DNA of 37,453 nt from a virus (Duplodnaviria; Heunggongvirae; Uroviricota; Caudoviricetes; Peduoviridae): the IMG/VR virus record IMGVR_UViG_2563366824_000006; one strand, written 5' to 3'. The notes beneath the pieces were generated by a model, which ran no database searches, was not told where the DNA came from, and saw only the letters and a list, made by a program, of their open reading frames with translations. Position numbers and translations under genes: made by a program. Of the stretch, positions 8,602 through 35,558 are shown one piece after another. Within the stretch, counting starts at the first letter, position 1; the number at the start of each line of letters is the position of its first letter.

Positions 8602-9606
8602 TTATGCTAACCATTTTGGATGCTCTTTATAAACATTATTAAACCACTCGGTCATTTCAGGTGAGTTCGTATCCTTTATCCAAGTTAACTCAAAGTCATC
8701 TCCCATAGATGCAAATATTGATTTCAATTGAGTTATGATTAAACCATAGTAAAATCCAAAAGTTTTTTCTTCATCCTCATTGACTAATGATTCAATATGA
8801 CAACTGAGAATAAATCGAACTCGTGCCGCCGTTGAGGGATGTGTCGATTGAAAATGTTCATGGGGTGATAAGCCATCAGAAAGTTTGAAGTAGCACAGTA
8901 TTAATAGCAATGAAAATGCAATTCCGCCTTCCTTGCTGCTATAAAAATCAAGCAAGTTATTAAGATAAGATGCCTTCTGATCAAATGCAGACTGTACATG
9001 TTTTTTTACAATATTAAGAGCAAAACCATCTGCAACTAATTCTCTTGCGTGGCTTGATATTATTTCTGCGCTATTGATTTTTTTATGTCCTAAAACATCA
9101 TCAAAGATAGTGTCAATAGATTGCTTTTTTGCTCGGTCGCCATGTTTATTAATGAAATGGCCTACTTCGTGACTAACTATAAACAGCATTAGACAATCAA
9201 GAATAAACATAAATAAGTGTGATTCGGACTCACTTTCCTCTCTTGTCTCATTGTTAAACCCAACAAATGGATTAGTAACGAGATGCAAGTCATAAAAGTT
9301 TAAATTAGTACTTTTCCCTGTTATCATCCCTGACCGAAAAATCAAGTCAGATAACTTACATAGTCTATCAAATGTGCCATAAGACATAAATATCAATTTT
9401 TCATCATAAATAATGCCGCATTGAAAATGTGAGTTGGTTGTAATGCAAAAATCCAGATCTAATTTTCGAACAGAGTCCATGTATTTACTAAAAAACGGCA
9501 GTACGAGACCATTATCTCTATCATTTATAAAATCATAGATAAGCCCCAATTGATTCTTTGAAAGAATTTCATTGATTTCATTAAGTTTTATTTCAAATCT
9601 ATCCAT
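8602..9606 (-). CDS. Cargo gene at the Z/fun position: putative zinc metallopeptidase with M48 (HtpX/Ste24)-like motifs and an N-terminal domain of about 135 aa of unknown function
   Basis: 334-aa ORF, AT-rich. Motifs read in the translation: HEVGH, then RELVADGFA (the ExxADxfA third-ligand motif of M48 peptidases), then STHPSTAARV (the THPxxxxR motif). AGAGGT Shine-Dalgarno upstream. No membrane helices evident, so probably soluble. Confidence 0.6.
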   Translation of the reverse strand: MDRFEIKLNEINEILSKNQLGLIYDFINDRDNGLVLPFFSKYMDSVRKLDLDFCITTNSHFQCGIIYDEKLIFMSYGTFDRLCKLSDLIFRSGMITGKSTNLNFYDLHLVTNPFVGFNNETREESESESHLFMFILDCLMLFIVSHEVGHFINKHGDRAKKQSIDTIFDDVLGHKKINSAEIISSHARELVADGFALNIVKKHVQSAFDQKASYLNNLLDFYSSKEGGIAFSLLLILCYFKLSDGLSPHEHFQSTHPSTAARVRFILSCHIESLVNEDEEKTFGFYYGLIITQLKSIFASMGDDFELTWIKDTNSPEMTEWFNNVYKEHPKWLA

Positions 9607-9922: not shown

Positions 9923-10774
9923 TTACATATCATTCGCTATCAATTCGGTTGAGAGAACCCTTGGAATCAAGCTACTTTTTGAACCATACTTTATATGCAG
10001 AAAGTCCATCATCTTTTCAACATCACTTTCATGCTCTACAATGACATATTTAATATCCTTATGTGAAAAGGGTAACCTGTCATCATCATAATATTCGTTA
10101 TATTTTCTCTTGCCATCTTGAGTTGATATATTTTTCGAAGCAGCGATCACTGGTTTTCCAATTGATTTTTCTATATCTGGAACAAATCGCCACTCCCTCT
10201 CATCTGCAAAAATATAGTTAGGTTTCTCCTGACCATTGCGTCGTTTCAAAGTTGCCTGGTAATTTTTCATATATCGCAAAGGATCTACAATTTTCTTGTA
10301 ACTAAGAATCGCCGAGTCATATTTCCGCTTTGCATTAGTTAATTGAGATGTTGTTCCTGAAGATTTTATTTCGTCCAAATGCTTTAATAACTTATTAACT
10401 TCTGCTTTTAAACGCCTAATCTCTAGATTATAATTATCAAAAACAGAAGAGTGCTTGGACATGTAAATTACTGGATTAAGTCCATTTTCGTTTGCCCAAT
10501 CTTTTGATAATCCTATGCCATAATGGCCATAACTTTCAGTATGCTGGGTAAGCTGTGTTAGCCTGATATCACAAAATGAAACCATCGGTATACCGAAATT
10601 TCTATTCGTGCTCTGGCCTTGTATAAACTCTCTAGCGAAAGAAATTCGAAAATAACTTGAGTCAAGTATCTCAAATAAGGTATCTAACTTTTCAGTAAAA
10701 TGAAACAAGGTCGTTGGGTATAAGCTACGCGACATAATGATCATCCATAATATGATGTATAAACTAAGTATCAT
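9923..10774 (-). CDS. Cargo gene at the Z/fun position: putative abortive-infection (Abi-like, possibly AbiGi-family) protein
   Basis: 283-aa ORF, AT-rich. N-terminal LFHFTEKLDTLFEIL ... GIPMVSFCDI ... YGHYGIGLSKDWANENGLNPVIY resembles Abi-family proteins as I remember them; family assignment unverified. True start may be an internal Met (ATG at 10744-10742 or 10735-10733), since the first 13 codons encode an odd hydrophobic peptide and lack a Shine-Dalgarno sequence. Confidence 0.5.
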   Translation of the reverse strand: MILSLYIILWMIIMSRSLYPTTLFHFTEKLDTLFEILDSSYFRISFAREFIQGQSTNRNFGIPMVSFCDIRLTQLTQHTESYGHYGIGLSKDWANENGLNPVIYMSKHSSVFDNYNLEIRRLKAEVNKLLKHLDEIKSSGTTSQLTNAKRKYDSAILSYKKIVDPLRYMKNYQATLKRRNGQEKPNYIFADEREWRFVPDIEKSIGKPVIAASKNISTQDGKRKYNEYYDDDRLPFSHKDIKYVIVEHESDVEKMMDFLHIKYGSKSSLIPRVLSTELIANDM

Positions 10775-10953: not shown

Positions 10954-11481
10954 TTATTGCGGCATTTCCGGCCATTCAGGATTTGCAGGATCCACACGGC
11001 TGACCAGAACACTGTAGCGTTCCCATGCTTCCAGTCGGCTACGCTCCTCATCTGTTGCCATGTTCAGCCTGACAGCGCGCTCCAGTGGCAAAATCACGGA
11101 TTCAGCATCTGCAAGAAGTCTGGCTTTCCGGTTTTCTGCCTGCTGCTGCAATTCCTCTGCCGTATAAATGCGTTTAATCACTGTACCGTCCTTAAACATC
11201 CAGTTCCCTGAAATGTCCGCCCGTCGGTTAGCAGTAATATCCGCCACTTCAACAACACTTAATCCATCCGGTCTGATAGCTGTCACATCCTTTTCCACAT
11301 AGCGGATGATATTATCTTTGTCGTACGCTATTTTTAGCGTGTCATCAGCAAAATACTTTTGTTCTTCGTACCAGTTCTTACCATCTTCTGAAAAAAACCA
11401 GACAACATCAAAGTCTTTTGTCAATTGATATTGTTCAACCGTTTTTGGATTACCCGCCGTAATATTTTTTAAATGCTGCAT
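10954..11481 (-). CDS. G: Tail fibre assembly protein G
   Basis: 175-aa ORF directly downstream of H; size and sequence consistent with P2 gpG. Confidence 0.85.
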
Positions 11482-11484
11482 AAA

Positions 11485-14244
11485 TTATACCTGCGCCACG
11501 TTATACCATGTCCCGTTAATGTATTTCTGAACCGGTCTGTAATATACACCACCAATGTTATCGGCAGAGTTTGAGCCGGTATCCTGAACAATAATGCCGG
11601 AATATACACACCCGGACGGTGCCTGATGTGTCCATGTCATGCCATTGTTCGCAGGTTTGTATGTGGCAGCACCACCAAGCCGGATATCCCGGACATAGCG
11701 GGAATCAAAGTTACCGTAATCCGAGGGATTAACACGCCCCGTAATATTTATGGTTTTATTACTTTGAATACTTCCCGAGACAAAGCGCATAACATGGACG
11801 CTATTAGCATAAACATCCAGATTACCATCACCATTTTGTTTAAAGCCCGTGTCATTATCACCCAAAACAATCGAATTACCGCCAAGAGCACTGGATGTTC
11901 CTATACCCAGAGCACCATTCAATTGACCACCAGATAACGGCAGTGCACCGACATCTCCCGCTGTAGGTTTTCGCGTTGTGGTATAAAACTCAGACCAGTC
12001 AGCCTCGAATCCGTAACCGTCACGAGCAGAACGATAAAAAATACCGCCGTTCTTATAATTAACGCGGAACTGGGCGGCGGGACAACTTCCTTCACCGATA
12101 TTAAAATGAAGAATTAACGTTGATGCCCCACCAGTAGTTGCGTTATAGGCTCCGCTACTCCAGTTCCACCCAACGGCTTTATCATTCGCAACGGTGTCTC
12201 CTGTTTTTCCTGAGGCAAATGCACCAATATTTTTCGGCGTCAGGTTAATATCTGATGTTCCATCAAACGAAACGTTATTAATTTTACGGGCTGTTTTCAG
12301 CTTTGTTGCTGTCGCCGCATTGCCGGACAGTTCACCAGAAAGGCCAGCACTGAATGTCTGTTTCGCGCCCCATGTCTGGGCTTCGTCAATGATTGGTACT
12401 CGTCTTGCTGTGATCGTGCGGCTTCCCGGATTTCCTGAAATACGCACCATAAAAAATCGGTAGTTCGCTTTACTTACAGTGCTGCGCCATACATGCATTG
12501 AGCGCCCCGTACCGGAATCATCACTCGGACCAACTGCGATGTTTATCAGGTTGCCATCAATGACGCCCCAGTCCATACCGTCGGGAATATTGGTCATATT
12601 ATCCAGCCTAACGGTTATCAGACTGCCCGGCACAAAATCGTAGGTCTGCCAGTCCAGGCTGGTGAGCTTTGCCACAGCACCGCCGATACCCAGATTCAGG
12701 GGAAGTGAATACGAGGTGTAGACTTCCCGCCATTCGCTCCATGAGCTGCCGGTAAAGACGCGCTCAAAGGTGCGGCCTTTAAGGGTTGTACCTGTTCCGG
12801 CAGTTGTATAACGCTGCCATACATTAACACCATCAAACCGCCTCAACACTTCCAGAATGCCGAGTACAGTCACGCCGTTTCCGTCCAGTACTGGACCGTT
12901 GGTCGCTTTACCTGTAACGCTGTAAATACCTGGTGAGGTTACATCATTCAAATCACCTTCGTAATAACGACTCTCTGACTGATGACCGACTCTTAACCAC
13001 GGTTCCCACTGCGGATTTGATGCATCCCAGCTTGCCGTAAGGCAGCGGACATACATATTTCCACGGCGAGTGGTATAACGTTGCGTTCTTCCATAATTTC
13101 CGCCTTCGAGGATCTCAAGCATCCCCTGAGCAAAGCCGCCTTCCTCTGGATAATTGCGTTCATATGAAGCTATAGCCGAGCTACTGTTACGCCATAAACC
13201 AAGATGTTCGGCGGCTCCAAGCGTATTCAGGTCTATAGTCGTACTCAAAGGGCGGGTAGCTGATTGAGTGTGACGCCATATGCCCCACGGACCATCAGAG
13301 CCATTCCACTTATTGGCGAGTCTGCGTATGTATACATTGCCGTCTCTCGTGGTGAAGCGTTGCGTACCTGCAAAATTGCCGGCAGCAAAAACCTCAAGCA
13401 CACCGACAGCATTATCTTCCGGGAAATTTTTCTCCAGTGTTGCGTTAGTTGAGGTAGCTTTAGACCAGATCCCCAGATAAGCCTTAACGGGACCAAATGT
13501 ATTCAGATCAGCATCAAGCGGCATTTCGCCATTGTTTTTCATAAACGTCAGGCTGGTAACGCCAACATTGTCCAGAAAAGCGTCCTTATCTGGAATATCG
13601 CCACCGTTCTGGTCTTTCTGCAGACGTTTCTCAGCATTGTCATAGGCTGCTTTTACTGCCTTTGGCGTTGCAGCCTGCTTTTCACTGGTGCTGTTTGTTG
13701 CACTGCTTAACTGAGTAAAACCTTTTTCTGTCAGCGTGGCGTCAGGATGGCGGCGGGACTGCTCATGCTCTGCGATTTTGTCATCGACGTAATCCTGCGT
13801 CGCCATCACTGTGCTGGCATCAATACTCAGCTCAACGGACGCCACGTTGCTGAGAATAATAACCATGCGGCAGGTCTGCGCACGTCCGGAGCCTTCAGCC
13901 AGTTCTGGCTTATAGCTTTCTGCCATGTTGGATACCGCAATCAGTGTTCCGGCATCGTCATACAGACCAAGCTCACGCATCCAGAAGCCGCCCACTTCTG
14001 GCGGAACAACCAGTTCAGCCACGATATAGTTTTTATTCTTGTTATCCACACTGACTTTATTCAGGGCATGACGCCAGACTTCATGCACCAGTTTCGTCTG
14101 ACCGGCATCCGGCACCGGCAATTGGCCATTACCGTCACCCACAGCCATTGCAGACAGGTTTACTTTTTTCCCGCCGGGAACAGTGGCGGCTGCCAGCTTC
14201 GCGGCTCCGGCAGTAGTGATAACGGTTTTAAATTTCGTGCTCAT
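11485..14244 (-). CDS. H: Tail fibre protein H (mosaic; longer than P2 gpH)
   Basis: 919-aa ORF; N-terminal about 240 aa and the C-terminal end (...NALGGNSIVLGDNDTGFKQNGDG... ...QKYINGTWYNVAQV) resemble P2 gpH from memory; the middle contains three tandem repeats of about 90 aa. Confidence 0.88.
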   Translation of the reverse strand: MSTKFKTVITTAGAAKLAAATVPGGKKVNLSAMAVGDGNGQLPVPDAGQTKLVHEVWRHALNKVSVDNKNKNYIVAELVVPPEVGGFWMRELGLYDDAGTLIAVSNMAESYKPELAEGSGRAQTCRMVIILSNVASVELSIDASTVMATQDYVDDKIAEHEQSRRHPDATLTEKGFTQLSSATNSTSEKQAATPKAVKAAYDNAEKRLQKDQNGGDIPDKDAFLDNVGVTSLTFMKNNGEMPLDADLNTFGPVKAYLGIWSKATSTNATLEKNFPEDNAVGVLEVFAAGNFAGTQRFTTRDGNVYIRRLANKWNGSDGPWGIWRHTQSATRPLSTTIDLNTLGAAEHLGLWRNSSSAIASYERNYPEEGGFAQGMLEILEGGNYGRTQRYTTRRGNMYVRCLTASWDASNPQWEPWLRVGHQSESRYYEGDLNDVTSPGIYSVTGKATNGPVLDGNGVTVLGILEVLRRFDGVNVWQRYTTAGTGTTLKGRTFERVFTGSSWSEWREVYTSYSLPLNLGIGGAVAKLTSLDWQTYDFVPGSLITVRLDNMTNIPDGMDWGVIDGNLINIAVGPSDDSGTGRSMHVWRSTVSKANYRFFMVRISGNPGSRTITARRVPIIDEAQTWGAKQTFSAGLSGELSGNAATATKLKTARKINNVSFDGTSDINLTPKNIGAFASGKTGDTVANDKAVGWNWSSGAYNATTGGASTLILHFNIGEGSCPAAQFRVNYKNGGIFYRSARDGYGFEADWSEFYTTTRKPTAGDVGALPLSGGQLNGALGIGTSSALGGNSIVLGDNDTGFKQNGDGNLDVYANSVHVMRFVSGSIQSNKTINITGRVNPSDYGNFDSRYVRDIRLGGAATYKPANNGMTWTHQAPSGCVYSGIIVQDTGSNSADNIGGVYYRPVQKYINGTWYNVAQV
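12706..13515 (-). repeat. Three tandem protein-level repeats of about 90 aa inside tail fibre H
   Basis: Repeat units begin DLNTFGPV..., DLNTLGAA..., DLNDVTSP... and each carries a G-x-x-Q-R-(F/Y)-T-T motif followed by W-x-x-W; coordinates derived from residue positions about 244-513. Confidence 0.6.
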
Positions 14245-14254
14245 TGTTTCTCAC

Positions 14255-14782
14255 TTATCCGGGATAAACAGTAATAACATCACCATCACAGACCACACCG
14301 CCTGTATACAGACAGCCGGGAATGTCCTGGATAATGTTCAGACCGATAAGGTGGCGACTTGCGGGTTTGGCATCGGCAATAAGCCGTTCCATTTCCAGAT
14401 ACATCTCCTCCGTGATGCCGCTTTCCAGTACGCCGATATCAAGGCGGAAGGTTCCGGGCGGGTCGTTTGTCTCCCACCATTCCTTTACGTTAATGAGATA
14501 GCCGAGCGGCTCCACCACACGCCGGATTGCGCCGATAGTGCCTTTATGACAGTGGATGAAATAGGCATCGCGGATAACGGCGCGTTTTGTCGCTTCCGGC
14601 CACTTTTCATCCCACCTGTCGACCGAAAACGCCCACGCCAGCCACGGCAGCAGATTTGCCGGACAGGTGTCCGGGTTCCACAGTTCACGAATACTGACCG
14701 GCGTTTTTTCAATTTCCGCACAGGCTTTTGCGGCAGCAATTTCAAGCGGTGATGAGCCGGTCGGCAGCAGGCGCTCACTCAT
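14255..14782 (-). CDS. I: Baseplate assembly protein I
   Basis: 175-aa ORF; P2 order (J, I, H). Confidence 0.85.
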   Translation of the reverse strand: MSERLLPTGSSPLEIAAAKACAEIEKTPVSIRELWNPDTCPANLLPWLAWAFSVDRWDEKWPEATKRAVIRDAYFIHCHKGTIGAIRRVVEPLGYLINVKEWWETNDPPGTFRLDIGVLESGITEEMYLEMERLIADAKPASRHLIGLNIIQDIPGCLYTGGVVCDGDVITVYPG

Positions 14783-16750: not shown

Positions 16751-17536
16751 ATGGTCAGCTATAATGTGACTAATGTGTGGGAGCTAATCGTCTTGTATCT
16801 TTTGGTCTTTGTAGTATTAGCATTTTTTAGCTTTGGTAAAAGTAACCTTATGAGGCTTATTGCACATTATTTCAAATTTGGATATTCAGATAAAAAATTA
16901 AAAAGACTGGACCGCGAGTGGCGCGACATTCAACTATTTAAAATAATTAACGGAATCAATGTATCAGGCATCAAAGATGTGAAAATGATACAGCAGGGGT
17001 TGATTGATGGAAAACTAAAAACATCGGATTTTTTCCTTACTCGCTTCTGGGGAGACATAACAGAACCGCCATGCATCACAAAAACAATGAGTGCAGTCCT
17101 GGCCGGAATTCTTTATATTACCTTCGCATGTTGCATACACAACGAGCAATCTGCCATAGTAGAGGATGCCATAGCCATACCATATAAAAATATGATGTAC
17201 CATGTTTATAATGACAAGGTTCTTTTGTTCTCCGACAATAAAACAGATAAGTTCTATAAAGCTTTTAGCATTGCCGATTGCAAGAGACTGCAGAACACTT
17301 TTGTAACAGACACACTTCCTGCAATCGCCTGCAATAAGCTCTTACAGCTAAACGAGGAGGACTCCAAATGGTTAAGTCAGGAGATTAAAGATAATAACAG
17401 CCACAGAAAAACATTATTAATAATATCCCTCGTCTATTTCACTTCAGGTCTGGTTATACTTCTGTCATATACAAAATTCCTTTACGCCAATAAAAAAGTT
17501 GTAGAATACAAATCATCAAATAAAAACCACTCATAA
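16751..17536 (+). CDS. Cargo gene at the orf30 position: membrane protein of unknown function (three predicted transmembrane helices)
   Basis: 261-aa ORF on the opposite strand to the flanking late genes; AT-rich and Lys/Asn/Ile-rich; hydrophobic segments near residues 10-28, 112-128 and 230-248; GGAG Shine-Dalgarno at 16741-16744. Confidence 0.6.
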   Translation: MVSYNVTNVWELIVLYLLVFVVLAFFSFGKSNLMRLIAHYFKFGYSDKKLKRLDREWRDIQLFKIINGINVSGIKDVKMIQQGLIDGKLKTSDFFLTRFWGDITEPPCITKTMSAVLAGILYITFACCIHNEQSAIVEDAIAIPYKNMMYHVYNDKVLLFSDNKTDKFYKAFSIADCKRLQNTFVTDTLPAIACNKLLQLNEEDSKWLSQEIKDNNSHRKTLLIISLVYFTSGLVILLSYTKFLYANKKVVEYKSSNKNHS

Positions 17537-27262: not shown

Positions 27263-29470
27263 ATGAAATTAAAACTCAAAAACGTAACAAGCTATCATAA
27301 AGAATATTTTACTGAGTTAGATTTATCCAAAAAAATAAACATATTGTATGGACAAAATGGTTGTGGAAAATCTACCATATCAAATTATTTTTACAATCCT
27401 AAAGACACCGCCTATAAGGAATGTGTATGCGAACCCATCGATAATTATCGAACCCTAGTCTACAACTCAAAATATATAGAAGATAATTTTTATAATGCAA
27501 AAGAGCAAAAAGGTATATTTACCCTCAGTCAAAAAAATGCAGAAATTGAAAAAATACTATCTGAAAAAGAAGAGCTAAACAAATCACTAGCACATCAGCA
27601 TAAAGAAAAAAAAGAATTTATCGAAAAACTCCATGAAGCGAAAAACAAAAAAGAGCAAGAATGCATAAATTCCATATGGAATAAGACCAAAGACATAAGA
27701 AGTTCAGAATTAAAACAATTAATGAAAGGTCAAATAGGAAGCAAAGCCACTTTCTATTACCATCTAAAAAAGTATACTCCACAAACTGATATTGATATAA
27801 AATCATTAATACAATCTTATAGCAAACTTCTCGAGTTTAAAGGAAAAGAAATACCTCTGATAACTCCTTATAAAGGATATGTTTTATCTGAAGAAACTCA
27901 AAAAACATTATCCACACCAATTATTGACTCTAGCAACAGCTATTTATCTGAAGCAATAAAAGAGCTACAAAATATTGATTGGATTAAACAAGGCAAAGAG
28001 CTATATTTAAATGGAGAAATTTGTCCATTTTGCCAAAGGGACACAATAGATGATAATTTTATTAAAGCCATTGAATCTATCTTTGATGAAACATACTCAA
28101 GAAAAGTAGATCAAATACAACAAATAAAACTATCTTATGATAATGCCATTAAAAATCATCATGAAGAAATAAAGAGTAACATTTTATCATGTGAGGTGAT
28201 AAACCAAGACGAAAAAGATAAAAGCCTTTCATATGTTAAGGCATTAGAAACTATTGCAGAAAAAAACATCAAATTATTGGATAATAAAATAGAGAATCCA
28301 TCTATAAGCATTGTGCTGGAGTTTGAAAAGTCGATAGAGGAAAAACTATTAGAAGATATAGAACAATACAACAAAAAAATTAACGAGTTCAATGACAAAG
28401 TAAAAAGATTTAATAATAGCGAAATAGATATTCGCGAAAAGATGTGGGCAGCAATCAGAGACTTATGTAGCGCGGAATTTGAAATACTATCAGACTGCGA
28501 AAGAAACTTTCAAGAAAAATATGAAAACGCTGCATCCTTCATGCAGGAAATAAAAAGAAAAGAAGAGATCAACACAAATGAAATCAATGAACTAAGAAAT
28601 AAAACATCAAGTGTAGATGCAACAATAGATGCAATAAACTCACGACTTAAATTTCTTGGCATCTCTGGTTTTAGCATTGATAAACACGCCGAACTCAAAG
28701 ATAAGTATATAATATCCCGCGATGGAAACAATAGAAAACAAGATGTATATCGGTCATTAAGCGAAGGTGAAAAAACATTAATAACGTTTCTATATTTTTT
28801 AGAATGTTGCAAGGGTAAAACAAATGAAAATGATACTGATATGCGTGATAAACTCATAGTTATAGATGATCCTATATCAAGTTTATCTCAAAACTATGTT
28901 TTCGACATAGCATCCATGATCCATCATGACATAATTGAAAAAGGCATTTCATCAAAAATAATAATCCTCACCCATAATCTTTATTTCTTCCATGAGTTAA
29001 TAAAACTCGCCTCTAAAAAAGGAATAAATTTTAAACGTGACTACTTTCTTGGCAGAATAAACAAAAATGAATTTAGCACCATTAGTGCTATAGATAAAAA
29101 AAGTGTGCAAAATGAATACCAATCCCTTTGGCAAGTATTAAAAGATGCAAAAGAGAAAAAAATCAACAAAATAATAATCCCCAATATTATGAGAAATATA
29201 CTTGAGTATTACTTTGCATTTGTTCATAGAACTGACGCATTAGAGGCAAAGCTTACTGAATTAACAAATGATGAAAATAACAGCCATTTCCGTGCCTTTT
29301 ACAGATATATAAACAGAGGCTCTCACTCCGACGCAATAAACATAACAGATATGGGCGATATTGAACCTGAGAAATACTTAGAACTCTTGCACAAAATATT
29401 CAGAATGACTGGTGATGAGAAACATTACTTAACAATGATGGGTGAAGAAGAGGTAAATGTTACCGCTTAG
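27263..29470 (+). CDS. Cargo gene at the tin/old position: RloC/PrrC-like ABC-type ATPase with Rad50-like CxxC zinc hook and putative C-terminal HEPN/anticodon-nuclease domain
   Basis: 735-aa ORF, very AT-rich. Walker A GQNGCGKST (27347..27373); long coiled-coil region with CPFC (28022..28033) at its midpoint; signature-like LSEGEK; Walker B LIVIDDP; H-loop ILTHNL; C-terminal R-x3-E (MRNILEYY) and R-x6-H (RYINRGSH) motifs. Confidence 0.55.
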   Translation: MKLKLKNVTSYHKEYFTELDLSKKINILYGQNGCGKSTISNYFYNPKDTAYKECVCEPIDNYRTLVYNSKYIEDNFYNAKEQKGIFTLSQKNAEIEKILSEKEELNKSLAHQHKEKKEFIEKLHEAKNKKEQECINSIWNKTKDIRSSELKQLMKGQIGSKATFYYHLKKYTPQTDIDIKSLIQSYSKLLEFKGKEIPLITPYKGYVLSEETQKTLSTPIIDSSNSYLSEAIKELQNIDWIKQGKELYLNGEICPFCQRDTIDDNFIKAIESIFDETYSRKVDQIQQIKLSYDNAIKNHHEEIKSNILSCEVINQDEKDKSLSYVKALETIAEKNIKLLDNKIENPSISIVLEFEKSIEEKLLEDIEQYNKKINEFNDKVKRFNNSEIDIREKMWAAIRDLCSAEFEILSDCERNFQEKYENAASFMQEIKRKEEINTNEINELRNKTSSVDATIDAINSRLKFLGISGFSIDKHAELKDKYIISRDGNNRKQDVYRSLSEGEKTLITFLYFLECCKGKTNENDTDMRDKLIVIDDPISSLSQNYVFDIASMIHHDIIEKGISSKIIILTHNLYFFHELIKLASKKGINFKRDYFLGRINKNEFSTISAIDKKSVQNEYQSLWQVLKDAKEKKINKIIIPNIMRNILEYYFAFVHRTDALEAKLTELTNDENNSHFRAFYRYINRGSHSDAINITDMGDIEPEKYLELLHKIFRMTGDEKHYLTMMGEEEVNVTA

Positions 29471-34544: not shown

Positions 34545-35558
34545 ATGGCAATCAAAAAACTCGATGATGGTCGATATGAAGTGGACATCCGCCCTACTGG
34601 ACGTAATGGAAAACGCATCCGTAGGAAGTTTGATAAGAAAAGCGAAGCTGTCGCTTTCGAGAAATACACGTTGTACAACCACCACAATAAAGAATGGCTA
34701 TCAAAACCAACAGACAAGCGACGTCTGTCGGAGCTGACACAGATCTGGTGGGATTTAAAGGGTAAACACGAAGAGCATGGGAAATCTAATCTTGGAAAAA
34801 TTGAAATCTTCACAAAAATAACGAATGACCCATGCGCATTTCAAATTACGAAATCGCTTATCAGCCAGTACTGCGCCACCCGAAGAAGTCAGGGTATTAA
34901 ACCTTCGAGTATCAATCGTGATTTAACATGTATTAGCGGCATGTTTACAGCCCTGATTGAAGCGGAGTTATTCTTTGGTGAGCACCCTATCAGAGGGACA
35001 AAAAGGCTTAAGGAGGAAAAACCAGACACAGGCTATCTCACGCAGGAAGAAATTGCCTTACTGCTTGCTGCTCTTGACGGCGACAACAAAAAGATTGCGA
35101 TTCTTTGCCTGAGTACTGGAGCACGTTGGGGAGAAGCAGCTCGTTTGAAAGCAGAAAATATCATCCATAACCGCGTCACGTTTGTTAAAACGAAAACAAA
35201 CAAACCACGCACCGTCCCGATCTCAGAGGCTGTTGCCAAAATGATCGCGGATAACAAACGAGGTTTTTTATTCCCTGATGCTGATTACCCTCGCTTCAGA
35301 CGAACAATGAAAGCAATAAAACCGGATTTGCCAATGGGGCAAGCCACACATGCACTAAGGCACAGCTTTGCCACTCATTTCATGATTAATGGAGGAAGTA
35401 TTATCACGCTACAACGGATACTAGGTCACACGCGGATTGAGCAAACTATGGTTTACGCTCATTTTGCGCCAGAGTACCTTCAGGACGCCATTTCTCTTAA
35501 TCCGCTAAGAGGTGGTACTGAGGCCGAGAGTGTCCACACAGTGTCCACAGTAGAGTAA
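34545..35558 (+). CDS. int: Tyrosine integrase
   Basis: 337-aa ORF with C-terminal R...HxxR...Y catalytic signature (HALRHSF...Y); matches P2 Int in size and position, adjacent to att. Confidence 0.9.
   Translation: MAIKKLDDGRYEVDIRPTGRNGKRIRRKFDKKSEAVAFEKYTLYNHHNKEWLSKPTDKRRLSELTQIWWDLKGKHEEHGKSNLGKIEIFTKITNDPCAFQITKSLISQYCATRRSQGIKPSSINRDLTCISGMFTALIEAELFFGEHPIRGTKRLKEEKPDTGYLTQEEIALLLAALDGDNKKIAILCLSTGARWGEAARLKAENIIHNRVTFVKTKTNKPRTVPISEAVAKMIADNKRGFLFPDADYPRFRRTMKAIKPDLPMGQATHALRHSFATHFMINGGSIITLQRILGHTRIEQTMVYAHFAPEYLQDAISLNPLRGGTEAESVHTVSTVE

Follow-up and report, generated by a model that had tools for sequence, protein, structure and literature searches.

Experiments have shown that gpH of Yersinia phage L-413C (NP_839867, 913 aa) binds to cells of Y. 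pestis (PMC7460101); the protein, as cited in the same paper, was described as a four-part mosaic by Garcia et al. 2008. On Y. pestis, L-413C and P2 vir1 both require the terminal GlcNAc/LPS-core receptor (PMC3182234). The host range of P88, a P2-like phage, has been mapped to a 31-aa region (aa 716-746) near the C-terminus (PMC5285337). The fibres of R-type pyocins contain two domains, Knob1 (residues 357-439) and Knob2 (residues 445-528), of which the second belongs to the most diverse regions and was proposed to bind the cell surface; knob domains, which have multiple hydrophobic cores, are argued to aid trimer folding, and relatives of these knobs include phi11 gp45, phage K gp144, T4 gp34 and pyocin fibres (Buth et al. 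2018, PMC6116203).

The window (the whole stretch of DNA that was analysed, 37,453 nt, IMG/VR record IMGVR_UViG_2563366824_000006) was 97-98% identical to Peduovirus genomes. Its tail fibre gene H fits the operon position of its P2 counterpart (V-W-J-I-H-G) by ORF order compared with the P2 annotation: baseplate gene I (14255..14782, from the ORF list and Pfam) lies directly upstream, and gene G, a Caudo_TAP chaperone gene, follows immediately 3'. G is 75% identical to P2 gpG and equal to it in length. The H protein is most probably the receptor-binding fibre of a P2-like (Peduovirus) prophage of E. coli, in the long form first seen in L-413C, assembled as a chain of exchangeable modules that includes a cassette of three knobs and a further domain, D4. 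The features of the locus are as follows.

11485..14244, minus strand: gene H, encoding a tail fibre of 919 aa in the 'long' form typified by L-413C (ORF).
13792..14244, minus strand: N-terminal baseplate-attachment domain, aa 1-151, which places H among Peduovirus gpH proteins (Pfam Phage_tail_fib, PF12571, E = 1.9e-57).
13615..13737, minus strand: Phage_fiber_2 repeat, aa 170-210, a conserved joint upstream of the cassette (PF03406, E = 6e-21).
13261..13530, minus strand: Knob 1 (K1), aa 239-328 (unit HMM, i-E = 5e-38).
12979..13254, minus strand: Knob 2 (K2), aa 331-422, the closest paralogue of K1 (unit HMM, i-E = 5.8e-39).
12712..12975, minus strand: Knob 3 (K3), aa 424-511, a divergent paralogue (unit HMM, i-E = 1.8e-28).
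12370..12711, minus strand: D4, aa 512-625, a predicted fourth, beta-rich globular domain (AF2 model and allele conservation).
12232..12369, minus strand: conserved linker motif (GNAATATKLKTARKINNVSFDGTSDINLTPKNI), aa 626-671, recurring in Tequatrovirus gp37.
11941..12231, minus strand: Mu S'-like / gp37_C distal segment, aa 672-768 (8ju3, E = 3.9e-48; PF12604, E = 4.6e-5).
11710..11940, minus strand: P2 H-like / gp37-trimerisation-like segment, aa 769-845 (67% to P2 gpH aa 477-534).
11488..11709, minus strand: C-terminal tip, aa 846-919, of another type than in P2 and L-413C apart from its last ~17 aa (42% identity to the P2 tip).
10954..11481, minus strand: gene G, chaperone for assembly of the tail fibre, paired with the H tip (Caudo_TAP, E = 1.5e-34).

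A reading made earlier from the sequence alone (the sequence-only reading) had described H as a mosaic with P2-like ends, a middle made of repeats and a length well above the about 669 aa given for P2 gpH. That length was right: canonical P2 gpH is annotated at 669 aa (NC_001895 12734..14743), and H is longer by 250 aa. The mosaic was likewise borne out by alignment, in which H matched P2 gpH at its two ends only, over 204 aa at the N-terminus (84%) and, across a gap of 68 aa, over 150 aa at the C-terminus (about 39%), so that only aa 1-204 and 770-919 resemble P2. The non-P2 middle (aa 205-769) is larger than the repeats and also takes in D4 and the Mu S'-like segment. P2 gpH was without the repeat unit when searched with the unit HMM (score -3).

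Three tandem repeats of about 90 aa had been noticed at aa 244-513, and these are real: the unit HMM located copies at aa 239-328, 331-422 and 424-511 (90, 92 and 88 aa). Self-BLASTP of H returned the identity match only. In windowed Smith-Waterman comparison with shuffling, K1 and K2 scored 187 against 26.6 +/- 4.9 for shuffled sequences (z = 32.7; 0/500 shuffles reached 187), and their profile-profile comparison (hhalign) gave E = 4.8e-29. K3 is much more diverged; pairwise it reached only z = 2.5-3.0 against K1 and K2, and its relationship became significant once homologues were added (hhalign probability 91%, E about 1e-6). The three units are homologous to one another. Each is closed by the W-x-x-W pair that forms the invariant columns W83 and W86 of the unit alignment, as the report of paired Trp residues had it. 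The proposed motif G-x-x-Q-R-(F/Y)-T-T survives in part: QR[FY]TT occurs exactly three times in H (aa 295, 388 and 477), but the constant 'G-x-x' does not hold, the spacing from G to Q being 1, 2 and 4 residues.

Profile and model matches together indicate that the repeat units are pyocin-knob domains, homologous to the knobs of R-type pyocin fibres and predicted to fold like them. Pfam, NCBIfam and single-sequence PDB searches returned no match for aa 233-670. Against the PDB, the unit profile matched 9b45 of the Pa193 tail fibre (E = 7e-6) and, from the R1/R2 pyocin fibres, 6cl5 (E = 8e-4), 6ct8 (1.5e-3) and 6cl6 (2e-3); each match spanned positions ~7-88 of 94, and the matches are modest in significance and consistent with one another. 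An AF2 model of K1 (pLDDT 84.8, pTM 0.77) has five strands, and its two best PDB matches in Foldseek were 6cl5_A (TM 0.70, rmsd 2.8 A, 26% identity) and 6ct8 (TM 0.69, rmsd 2.5 A), followed by Pa193, phi812, T4 gp34, phage K gp144 and phi11 gp45; Foldseek E-values for the single-unit model were 1.7e-3 to 3e-2. Four of these matches, namely the pyocin fibres, T4 gp34, phage K gp144 and phi11 gp45, also figure among the knob relatives given by Buth et al. 2018. The structural support comes from monomer AlphaFold models, and the knob identity leans on several modest matches in agreement. The five predicted strands fit the fold of Knob1 and Knob2, a single antiparallel sheet of five or six strands joined by long loops, and the unit lengths of 88-92 aa agree with the roughly 83-90 residues of pyocin knobs. 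A 408-aa model of all four domains was less informative (pTM 0.42; Foldseek TM about 0.25, with beta-propeller lectins intermixed). NCBI titles for homologues read 'pyocin knob domain-containing protein'.

Of the remaining modules of H, the Phage_fiber_2 segment is also present in Mu S (PDB 5yvq/8ju3). D4 was modelled with six strands, at pLDDT mostly 64-88 (in blocks of ten) and below 50 at its joint to knob 3; it had no Pfam match and no PDB profile match (best E = 0.08, a lectin). A reading of D4 as a fourth, degenerate knob found no support in sequence (hhalign probability <1% against the knob profile; no PDB match) and was set aside; any kinship would be one of fold. The linker is probably a recombination joint, judging from its distribution: its motif also lies upstream of the cassette in gp37 of Tequatrovirus VIPECOOM01 (57% over 44 aa), and the H protein of P24A7b is homologous to this one until aa ~672 and divergent beyond. 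Beyond the linker, aa 672-768 are about 80% identical to Mu S,S' (8ju3), as counted by hand from the alignment, and aa 769-845 gave a weak PF20744 match and a PDB match to 6f45 (E = 1.7e-4). In the PDB, the tip came closest in sequence to 9cuy, the short tail fibre of phiTE (E = 2.8e-18). By analogy with related fibres, the tip is likely the primary receptor-binding and chaperone-binding end. H ends in RPVQKYINGTWYNVAQV and P2 gpH in RPIQKYINGTWYNVAQV, with 16/17 of the last residues identical, and from the Mu and P2 fibres we infer that this conserved end binds the chaperone G.

In the arrangement proposed here, the P2-type N-terminal domain would attach the fibre to the baseplate and would be followed by the three tandem pyocin-knob domains, D4 and the conserved linker; the distal part would be Mu S'/gp37-like, with a tip that folds with assistance from chaperone G, encoded downstream. 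By analogy with the pyocin crystal structures, each knob in the trimer would form a compact bead, its beta-sheets around the three-fold axis and its loops facing outward. With its beads packed in this way, the array may serve as a rigid section of shaft that trimerises by itself and adds to the length of the fibre. Its loops, exposed in three rings and fast-evolving, probably touch surface sugars in an auxiliary role, and primary receptor choice (LPS core) would, as in relatives, be made by the C-terminal tip rather than by the knobs.

Allelic variability bears on this division of labour. Across 30 distinct E. coli alleles, which are non-independent database entries and many of them partial, per-site variability was 0.15-0.19 in the knobs versus 0.06 in D4. 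It was enriched in predicted loops of K3 (p = 0.001) and K1 (p = 0.04), and no loop enrichment was found in K2 in this set. The identities of K1, K2 and K3 vary independently across alleles, while D4 stays at 90% or above and is kept at 95% or above in most of them. The alternative that survives best takes the knobs as purely structural: they would serve as trimerisation nuclei and, as spacers, fix the length of the fibre without touching the host surface; the variability would then reflect relaxed constraint on loops and hitch-hiking with recombination. Several observations are as this would predict: knob domains are argued to aid trimer folding (Buth et al., PMC6116203), the columns conserved in the unit alignment (G, P, E, Q, T, W, W) belong to the core, K2 shows no loop-specific variability, and fibres carry 1-8 matched stretches, as expected of a length module. 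We nevertheless hold it to be doubtful, as variability is three-fold above that of the adjacent D4 and loop-enriched in K1 and K3, and single-knob reassortment among otherwise near-identical alleles suggests selection.

A bolder proposal is that each of the three knobs is a specificity cassette that can be exchanged on its own, its ring of loops reading a different feature of the O-antigen/LPS layer. This is speculative and, on present evidence, unlikely; if true, knob-by-knob reassortment in E. coli Peduovirus prophages would tune host range combinatorially, besides the tip, and would constitute a lateral, multi-site mode of recognition not yet demonstrated for P2-like phages.

The sequence-only reading had gone further and suggested that the repeats form a swapped or expanded receptor-binding shaft that gives a host range different from that of P2. 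Among E. coli alleles no other part of the shaft is indeed as variable as the knobs, which also recombine one at a time, but a main receptor-binding role for them is improbable: L-413C and the knobless P2 vir1 need the same LPS-core residues on Y. pestis, P88 host range maps near the C-terminus, and the H tip is likewise a swapped module, carrying an end nearly identical to that of P2 gpH. A difference in host range thus cannot be attributed to the repeats. It is plausible from the sequence that the H phage differs from P2 in host range, because the H tip (aa 846-919) is unlike those of both P2 and L-413C. The receptor common to L-413C and P2 vir1 was demonstrated on Y. pestis only, and L-413C combines an H-type shaft with a P2-like tip.

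The preferred reading, of auxiliary knobs in a modular fibre, also extends to the origin of the cassette. Codon-aligned identity between K1 and K2 was 45% (aa) and 58% (nt), that of K3 to K1 and K2 was 44-54% (nt), and third-codon-position identity between units was 32-40%. TRF found no DNA repeat across the three units; the two arrays that it did report, at 14101-14120 and 14633-14651, are short and unrelated, and DNA-level self-comparison of the region gave short chance seeds only. T4-like gp37 has an orthologue of each unit, arranged as in H; at roughly 50-70%, their identity to the H units exceeds that between the paralogues. The Tequatrovirus gp37 cassette matched H at 51% identity over aa 121-631; the order K1-K2-K3 is kept there and in several other fibre architectures, and Atlantibacter S74-type fibres have a two-knob, K1-K3 version. 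The unit is carried by 1913 protein cluster representatives, and the best 150 of these 1913 clusters had 1-8 matched knob stretches (mode 3). These comparisons show the units to be paralogues of old standing, which pass as one block between unrelated fibres, T4-like gp37 among them. Since the knob order is kept in gp37 and other fibre contexts and the paralogues are old, the shaft was therefore, by all indications, acquired en bloc and not amplified in the phage. The description of the module as triplicated or expanded, taken as a local event, does not hold: a recent tandem triplication within the H phage lineage, as the adjacency, similar length and shared motifs of the units might suggest, is refuted by their low nucleotide and third-position identity, the lack of a detectable DNA repeat and the closer, co-linear orthologues in T4-like gp37.

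The architecture of H is already known, as L-413C gpH represents it, sequenced and annotated, as a common fibre type. H genes identical to this one, or nearly so, recur across many genomes of E. coli and across isolated phages; the tail fibres of Peduovirus P22H1 and others are 99.8% identical in protein, and E. coli JNE21-009 carries the gene at 100% DNA identity. H has little value as a discovery: RefSeq genomes of E. coli carry the gene with 100% identity in DNA, the mosaic make-up was described for L-413C in 2008, and the knob repeat is a catalogued domain already in NCBI protein names. For fibre engineering and host-range prediction, aa 232-631 may be treated as a single portable cassette between conserved joints, and primary specificity is better sought in the tip and G. 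Knob-wise allelic reassortment offers a cheap, testable handle on the contribution of shaft knobs to adsorption.

Compared with known systems, Mu S/S' (5yvq, 8ju3) resembles H in the Phage_fiber_2 segment, the variable part of S' and the C-terminal end, but the solved Mu constructs lack a knob cassette and Mu relies on an invertible G segment; among the genes neighbouring H and G, no inverted alternative fibre gene adjoins them. Tequatrovirus gp37 (VIPECOOM01 WFG77869; Shigella phage JK23) has K1-K2-K3-D4 in the order of H at 51-59% identity, flanked by the linker motif. Unlike H, this 982-aa protein is a T4-type fibre with the cassette near its N-terminus and no P2 attachment domain, and gp38-type adhesin genes lie downstream. 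The R1/R2 pyocin fibres (6cl5, 6cl6, 6ct8) share the knob fold and detectable sequence homology, with tandem knobs that follow a P2-type N-terminus, which binds the particle, and precede a binding domain at the C-terminus. They have two knobs, an iron-containing shaft and a lectin-like foot, whereas H has three knobs, D4 and a gp37/Mu S'-like tip, and identity between the P. aeruginosa R1/R2 pyocin knobs and the H knobs is only 24-26%. P2 gpH (NP_046775) shares the N-terminus, the aa 769-845 segment, the last ~17 aa, G and the operon position, but its middle, free of knobs, consists of a second Phage_fiber_2-type repeat and then an Ala-rich region. L-413C gpH differs from H in K1 and K3, only about 50% identical as read from the alignment, and in its last ~65 aa, where its tip is P2-like and that of H is of another type (divergence after aa ~855). 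It is otherwise colinear with H over the full length, at 77% identity (708/923) with no large gaps, and shares with it the N-terminus, three knobs, D4, the linker, the Mu S'-like segment and the gene order I-H-G.

Overall, the window matches Peduovirus P22H1, P24E6b, D8 and others at 97-98% identity; it is a P2-like prophage, flanked by host genes and with an integrase gene at 34545..35558. The tail-fibre gene H follows the baseplate gene I homologue, which ends 10 nt upstream, and the 175-aa Caudo_TAP chaperone gene G (75% identity to P2 gpG) starts 3 nt downstream. By BLASTP, H aa 1-204 were 84% identical to P2 gpH and aa 770-919 ~39% identical, with 68 P2 residues absent from H and the C-terminal 17 residues conserved. 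Nothing in aa 205-769 aligned to P2 gpH, and the sequence-only reading of P2-like ends around a foreign middle is therefore right, as was the length it gave for canonical P2 gpH (669 aa). Two records both named "Peduovirus P2" (OU784746.1 and NC_070906.1; 31,490 bp) encode the 919-aa H at 99.8% identity rather than the 669-aa gpH, so that the species label is no predictor of fibre type. The fibre was divided as follows.

11485..14244, minus strand: H, tail fibre, ORF of 919 aa
H aa 239-328, minus-strand gene: K1, first knob unit, placed by HMM
H aa 331-422, minus-strand gene: K2, second knob unit, placed by HMM
H aa 424-511, minus-strand gene: K3, third knob unit, placed by HMM
H aa 512-625 (12370..12711), minus strand: D4, six-strand beta domain in the predicted model
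H aa 626-671, minus-strand gene: linker
H aa 672-768 (11941..12231), minus strand: Mu S'-like segment, ~80% identity to the Mu S' variable region (PDB 8ju3)
H aa 769-845, minus-strand gene: P2-like segment, 67% identity to P2 gpH
H aa 846-919, minus-strand gene: tip, the C-terminal end, weakly like P2 (42%) and L-413C

The three tandem repeats claimed for the middle were recovered with minor corrections. The motif QR[FY]TT is found at aa 295, 388 and 477, and segment-versus-segment Smith-Waterman comparison within H gave its peak score at the 241/341 offset. K1 and K2 scored 187 against 26.6 +/- 4.9 for shuffled sequences (z = 32.7), and their profiles, built from database homologues, matched in hhalign at E = 4.8e-29; K3 against K1 or K2 gave z = 2.5-3.0 pairwise and E ~1e-6 (probability 91%) by profile. 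The HMM, made from a 26-sequence unit alignment in which the G, P, E, Q, T, W and W columns do not vary, found exactly three units in H and zero in P2 gpH. No DNA-level tandem repeat was present in the repeat region, and codon-aligned nucleotide identity was 58% for K1-K2 and 44-54% in comparisons with K3. The repeats are judged real but old; the proposed shaft stands as mosaic and swapped, and not as a local triplication.

Close H homologues are titled "pyocin knob domain-containing protein" at NCBI. Against PDB sequences, the unit profile matched the Pseudomonas phage Pa193 tail fibre (9b45, E = 7e-6), the R1 pyocin fibre (6cl5, E = 8e-4) and R2 pyocin fibres (6ct8, E = 1.5e-3; 6cl6, E = 2e-3), the whole unit being covered in each. 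An AlphaFold model of K1 alone (pLDDT 84.8, pTM 0.77, five strands) ranked 6cl5_A first in Foldseek (TM 0.70, rmsd 2.8 A, 26% identity) and 6ct8 second (TM 0.69), followed by Pa193, phi812, T4 gp34, phage K gp144 and phi11 gp45; a larger four-domain model returned the same families with worse scores. Four of these matches (phi11 gp45, phage K gp144, T4 gp34 and the pyocin fibres themselves) are the ones that Buth et al. 2018 give as structural relatives of the pyocin knobs (PMC6116203). For D4 no relative was detected in PDB sequences, Pfam or the knob profile; it always follows the knobs and, as the knobs vary, most E. coli alleles keep it at 95% identity or above.

In an exhaustive HMM search of 1.84 billion cluster representatives, 1913 proteins contained the unit at E <= 1e-3 (356 at E <= 1e-10). 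Among the best 150 of the 1913, matched stretches numbered 1-8 per protein with a mode of 3 (54/150), and a stricter re-count gave 1-7 copies, again with mode 3. The ordered K1-K2-K3 set recurs in other proteins of 589 to 1494 aa, and one of 1300 aa (P0121) has six units as two such sets in succession. A two-knob K1-K3 form without K2 is found in Atlantibacter and Citrobacter fibres that bear S74 peptidase chaperone domains (P0093-P0120); this suggests that K2 arose by duplication of K1. Tequatrovirus VIPECOOM01 gp37 is 51% identical to H aa 121-631, the region of the K1-K2-K3-D4 cassette, and a conserved motif stands after the cassette in H and before it in gp37. Given this recurrence, the sharing with gp37 and the common joint motif, the cassette is a mobile block between conserved joints. 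This fits the long-known exchange of tail-fibre segments, reportedly described by Haggard-Ljungquist et al. in 1992 as horizontal among P2, Mu, P1, lambda and T-even phages. The Mu S'-like segment points to a recent Peduovirus/Mu-like fibre exchange.

A host range unlike that of P2 had been suggested from the repeats, and it is not attributable to them. On Y. pestis, Yersinia phage L-413C and P2 vir1 both need the GlcNAc that terminates the LPS outer core, together with the heptoses beneath it (PMC3182234), and their fibres have only the N-terminus and tip in common; in P2-like P88, a 31-residue swap near the C-terminus altered host range (PMC5285337). Because of the shared receptor and the P88 swap, primary specificity of H is best assigned to the tip, which among PDB sequences is closest to the phiTE short tail fibre. 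Per-site variability across 30 distinct E. coli alleles was 0.17, 0.15 and 0.19 in K1, K2 and K3 versus 0.06 in D4, and it was enriched in predicted loops of K3 (p = 0.001) and K1 (p = 0.04), with no loop enrichment in K2. Identities of K1/K2/K3 to the window allele varied independently of one another (e.g. 100/99/76, 78/82/98 and 47/77/76), with D4 at least 90%. The knobs of H are not inert in evolution, and their diversity parallels that of pyocin Knob2, one of the most variable regions there, with a proposed part in orienting the fibre on the cell surface (PMC6116203). From this parallel, the allelic variability and the reassortment, the favoured view is that the knobs would be rigid self-trimerising shaft beads that, we infer, also bind, adding auxiliary, diversifying surface contacts.

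The window carries other cargo.

9923..10774, minus strand: AbiGi-like gene between G and sheath gene FI (Pfam E = 7e-31; PADLOC AbiGi E = 1e-41)
8602..9606, minus strand: 334-aa ORF adjoining the AbiGi-like gene, weak Peptidase_M48 match only
27263..29470, plus strand: 735-aa AAA_13 ATPase (PADLOC candidate defence family PDC-S06, E = 1e-254; PrrC-like C-terminal match)
16751..17536, plus strand: 261-aa ORF opposite the baseplate operon at the P2 orf30 position, zero Pfam or PADLOC matches

The AbiGi-like gene occupies the slot held by fun(Z) in P2 and, with the 334-aa ORF as a non-canonical partner, could be two-gene abortive-infection cargo; the ATPase looks like a further defence moron carried by the prophage.

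Fibres that cover 80% or more of H are present in 30 phage records (4 at >=99% identity), and 169 complete E. coli genomes have the gene across 80% or more of its length, one at 100% DNA identity. L-413C gpH (913 aa) is colinear with H at 77% identity, and H is accordingly an already known fibre type made from a catalogued domain. Garcia et al. 2008, as cited in PMC7460101, described the L-413C protein as a hybrid of four regions whose N- and C-termini are P2-like.
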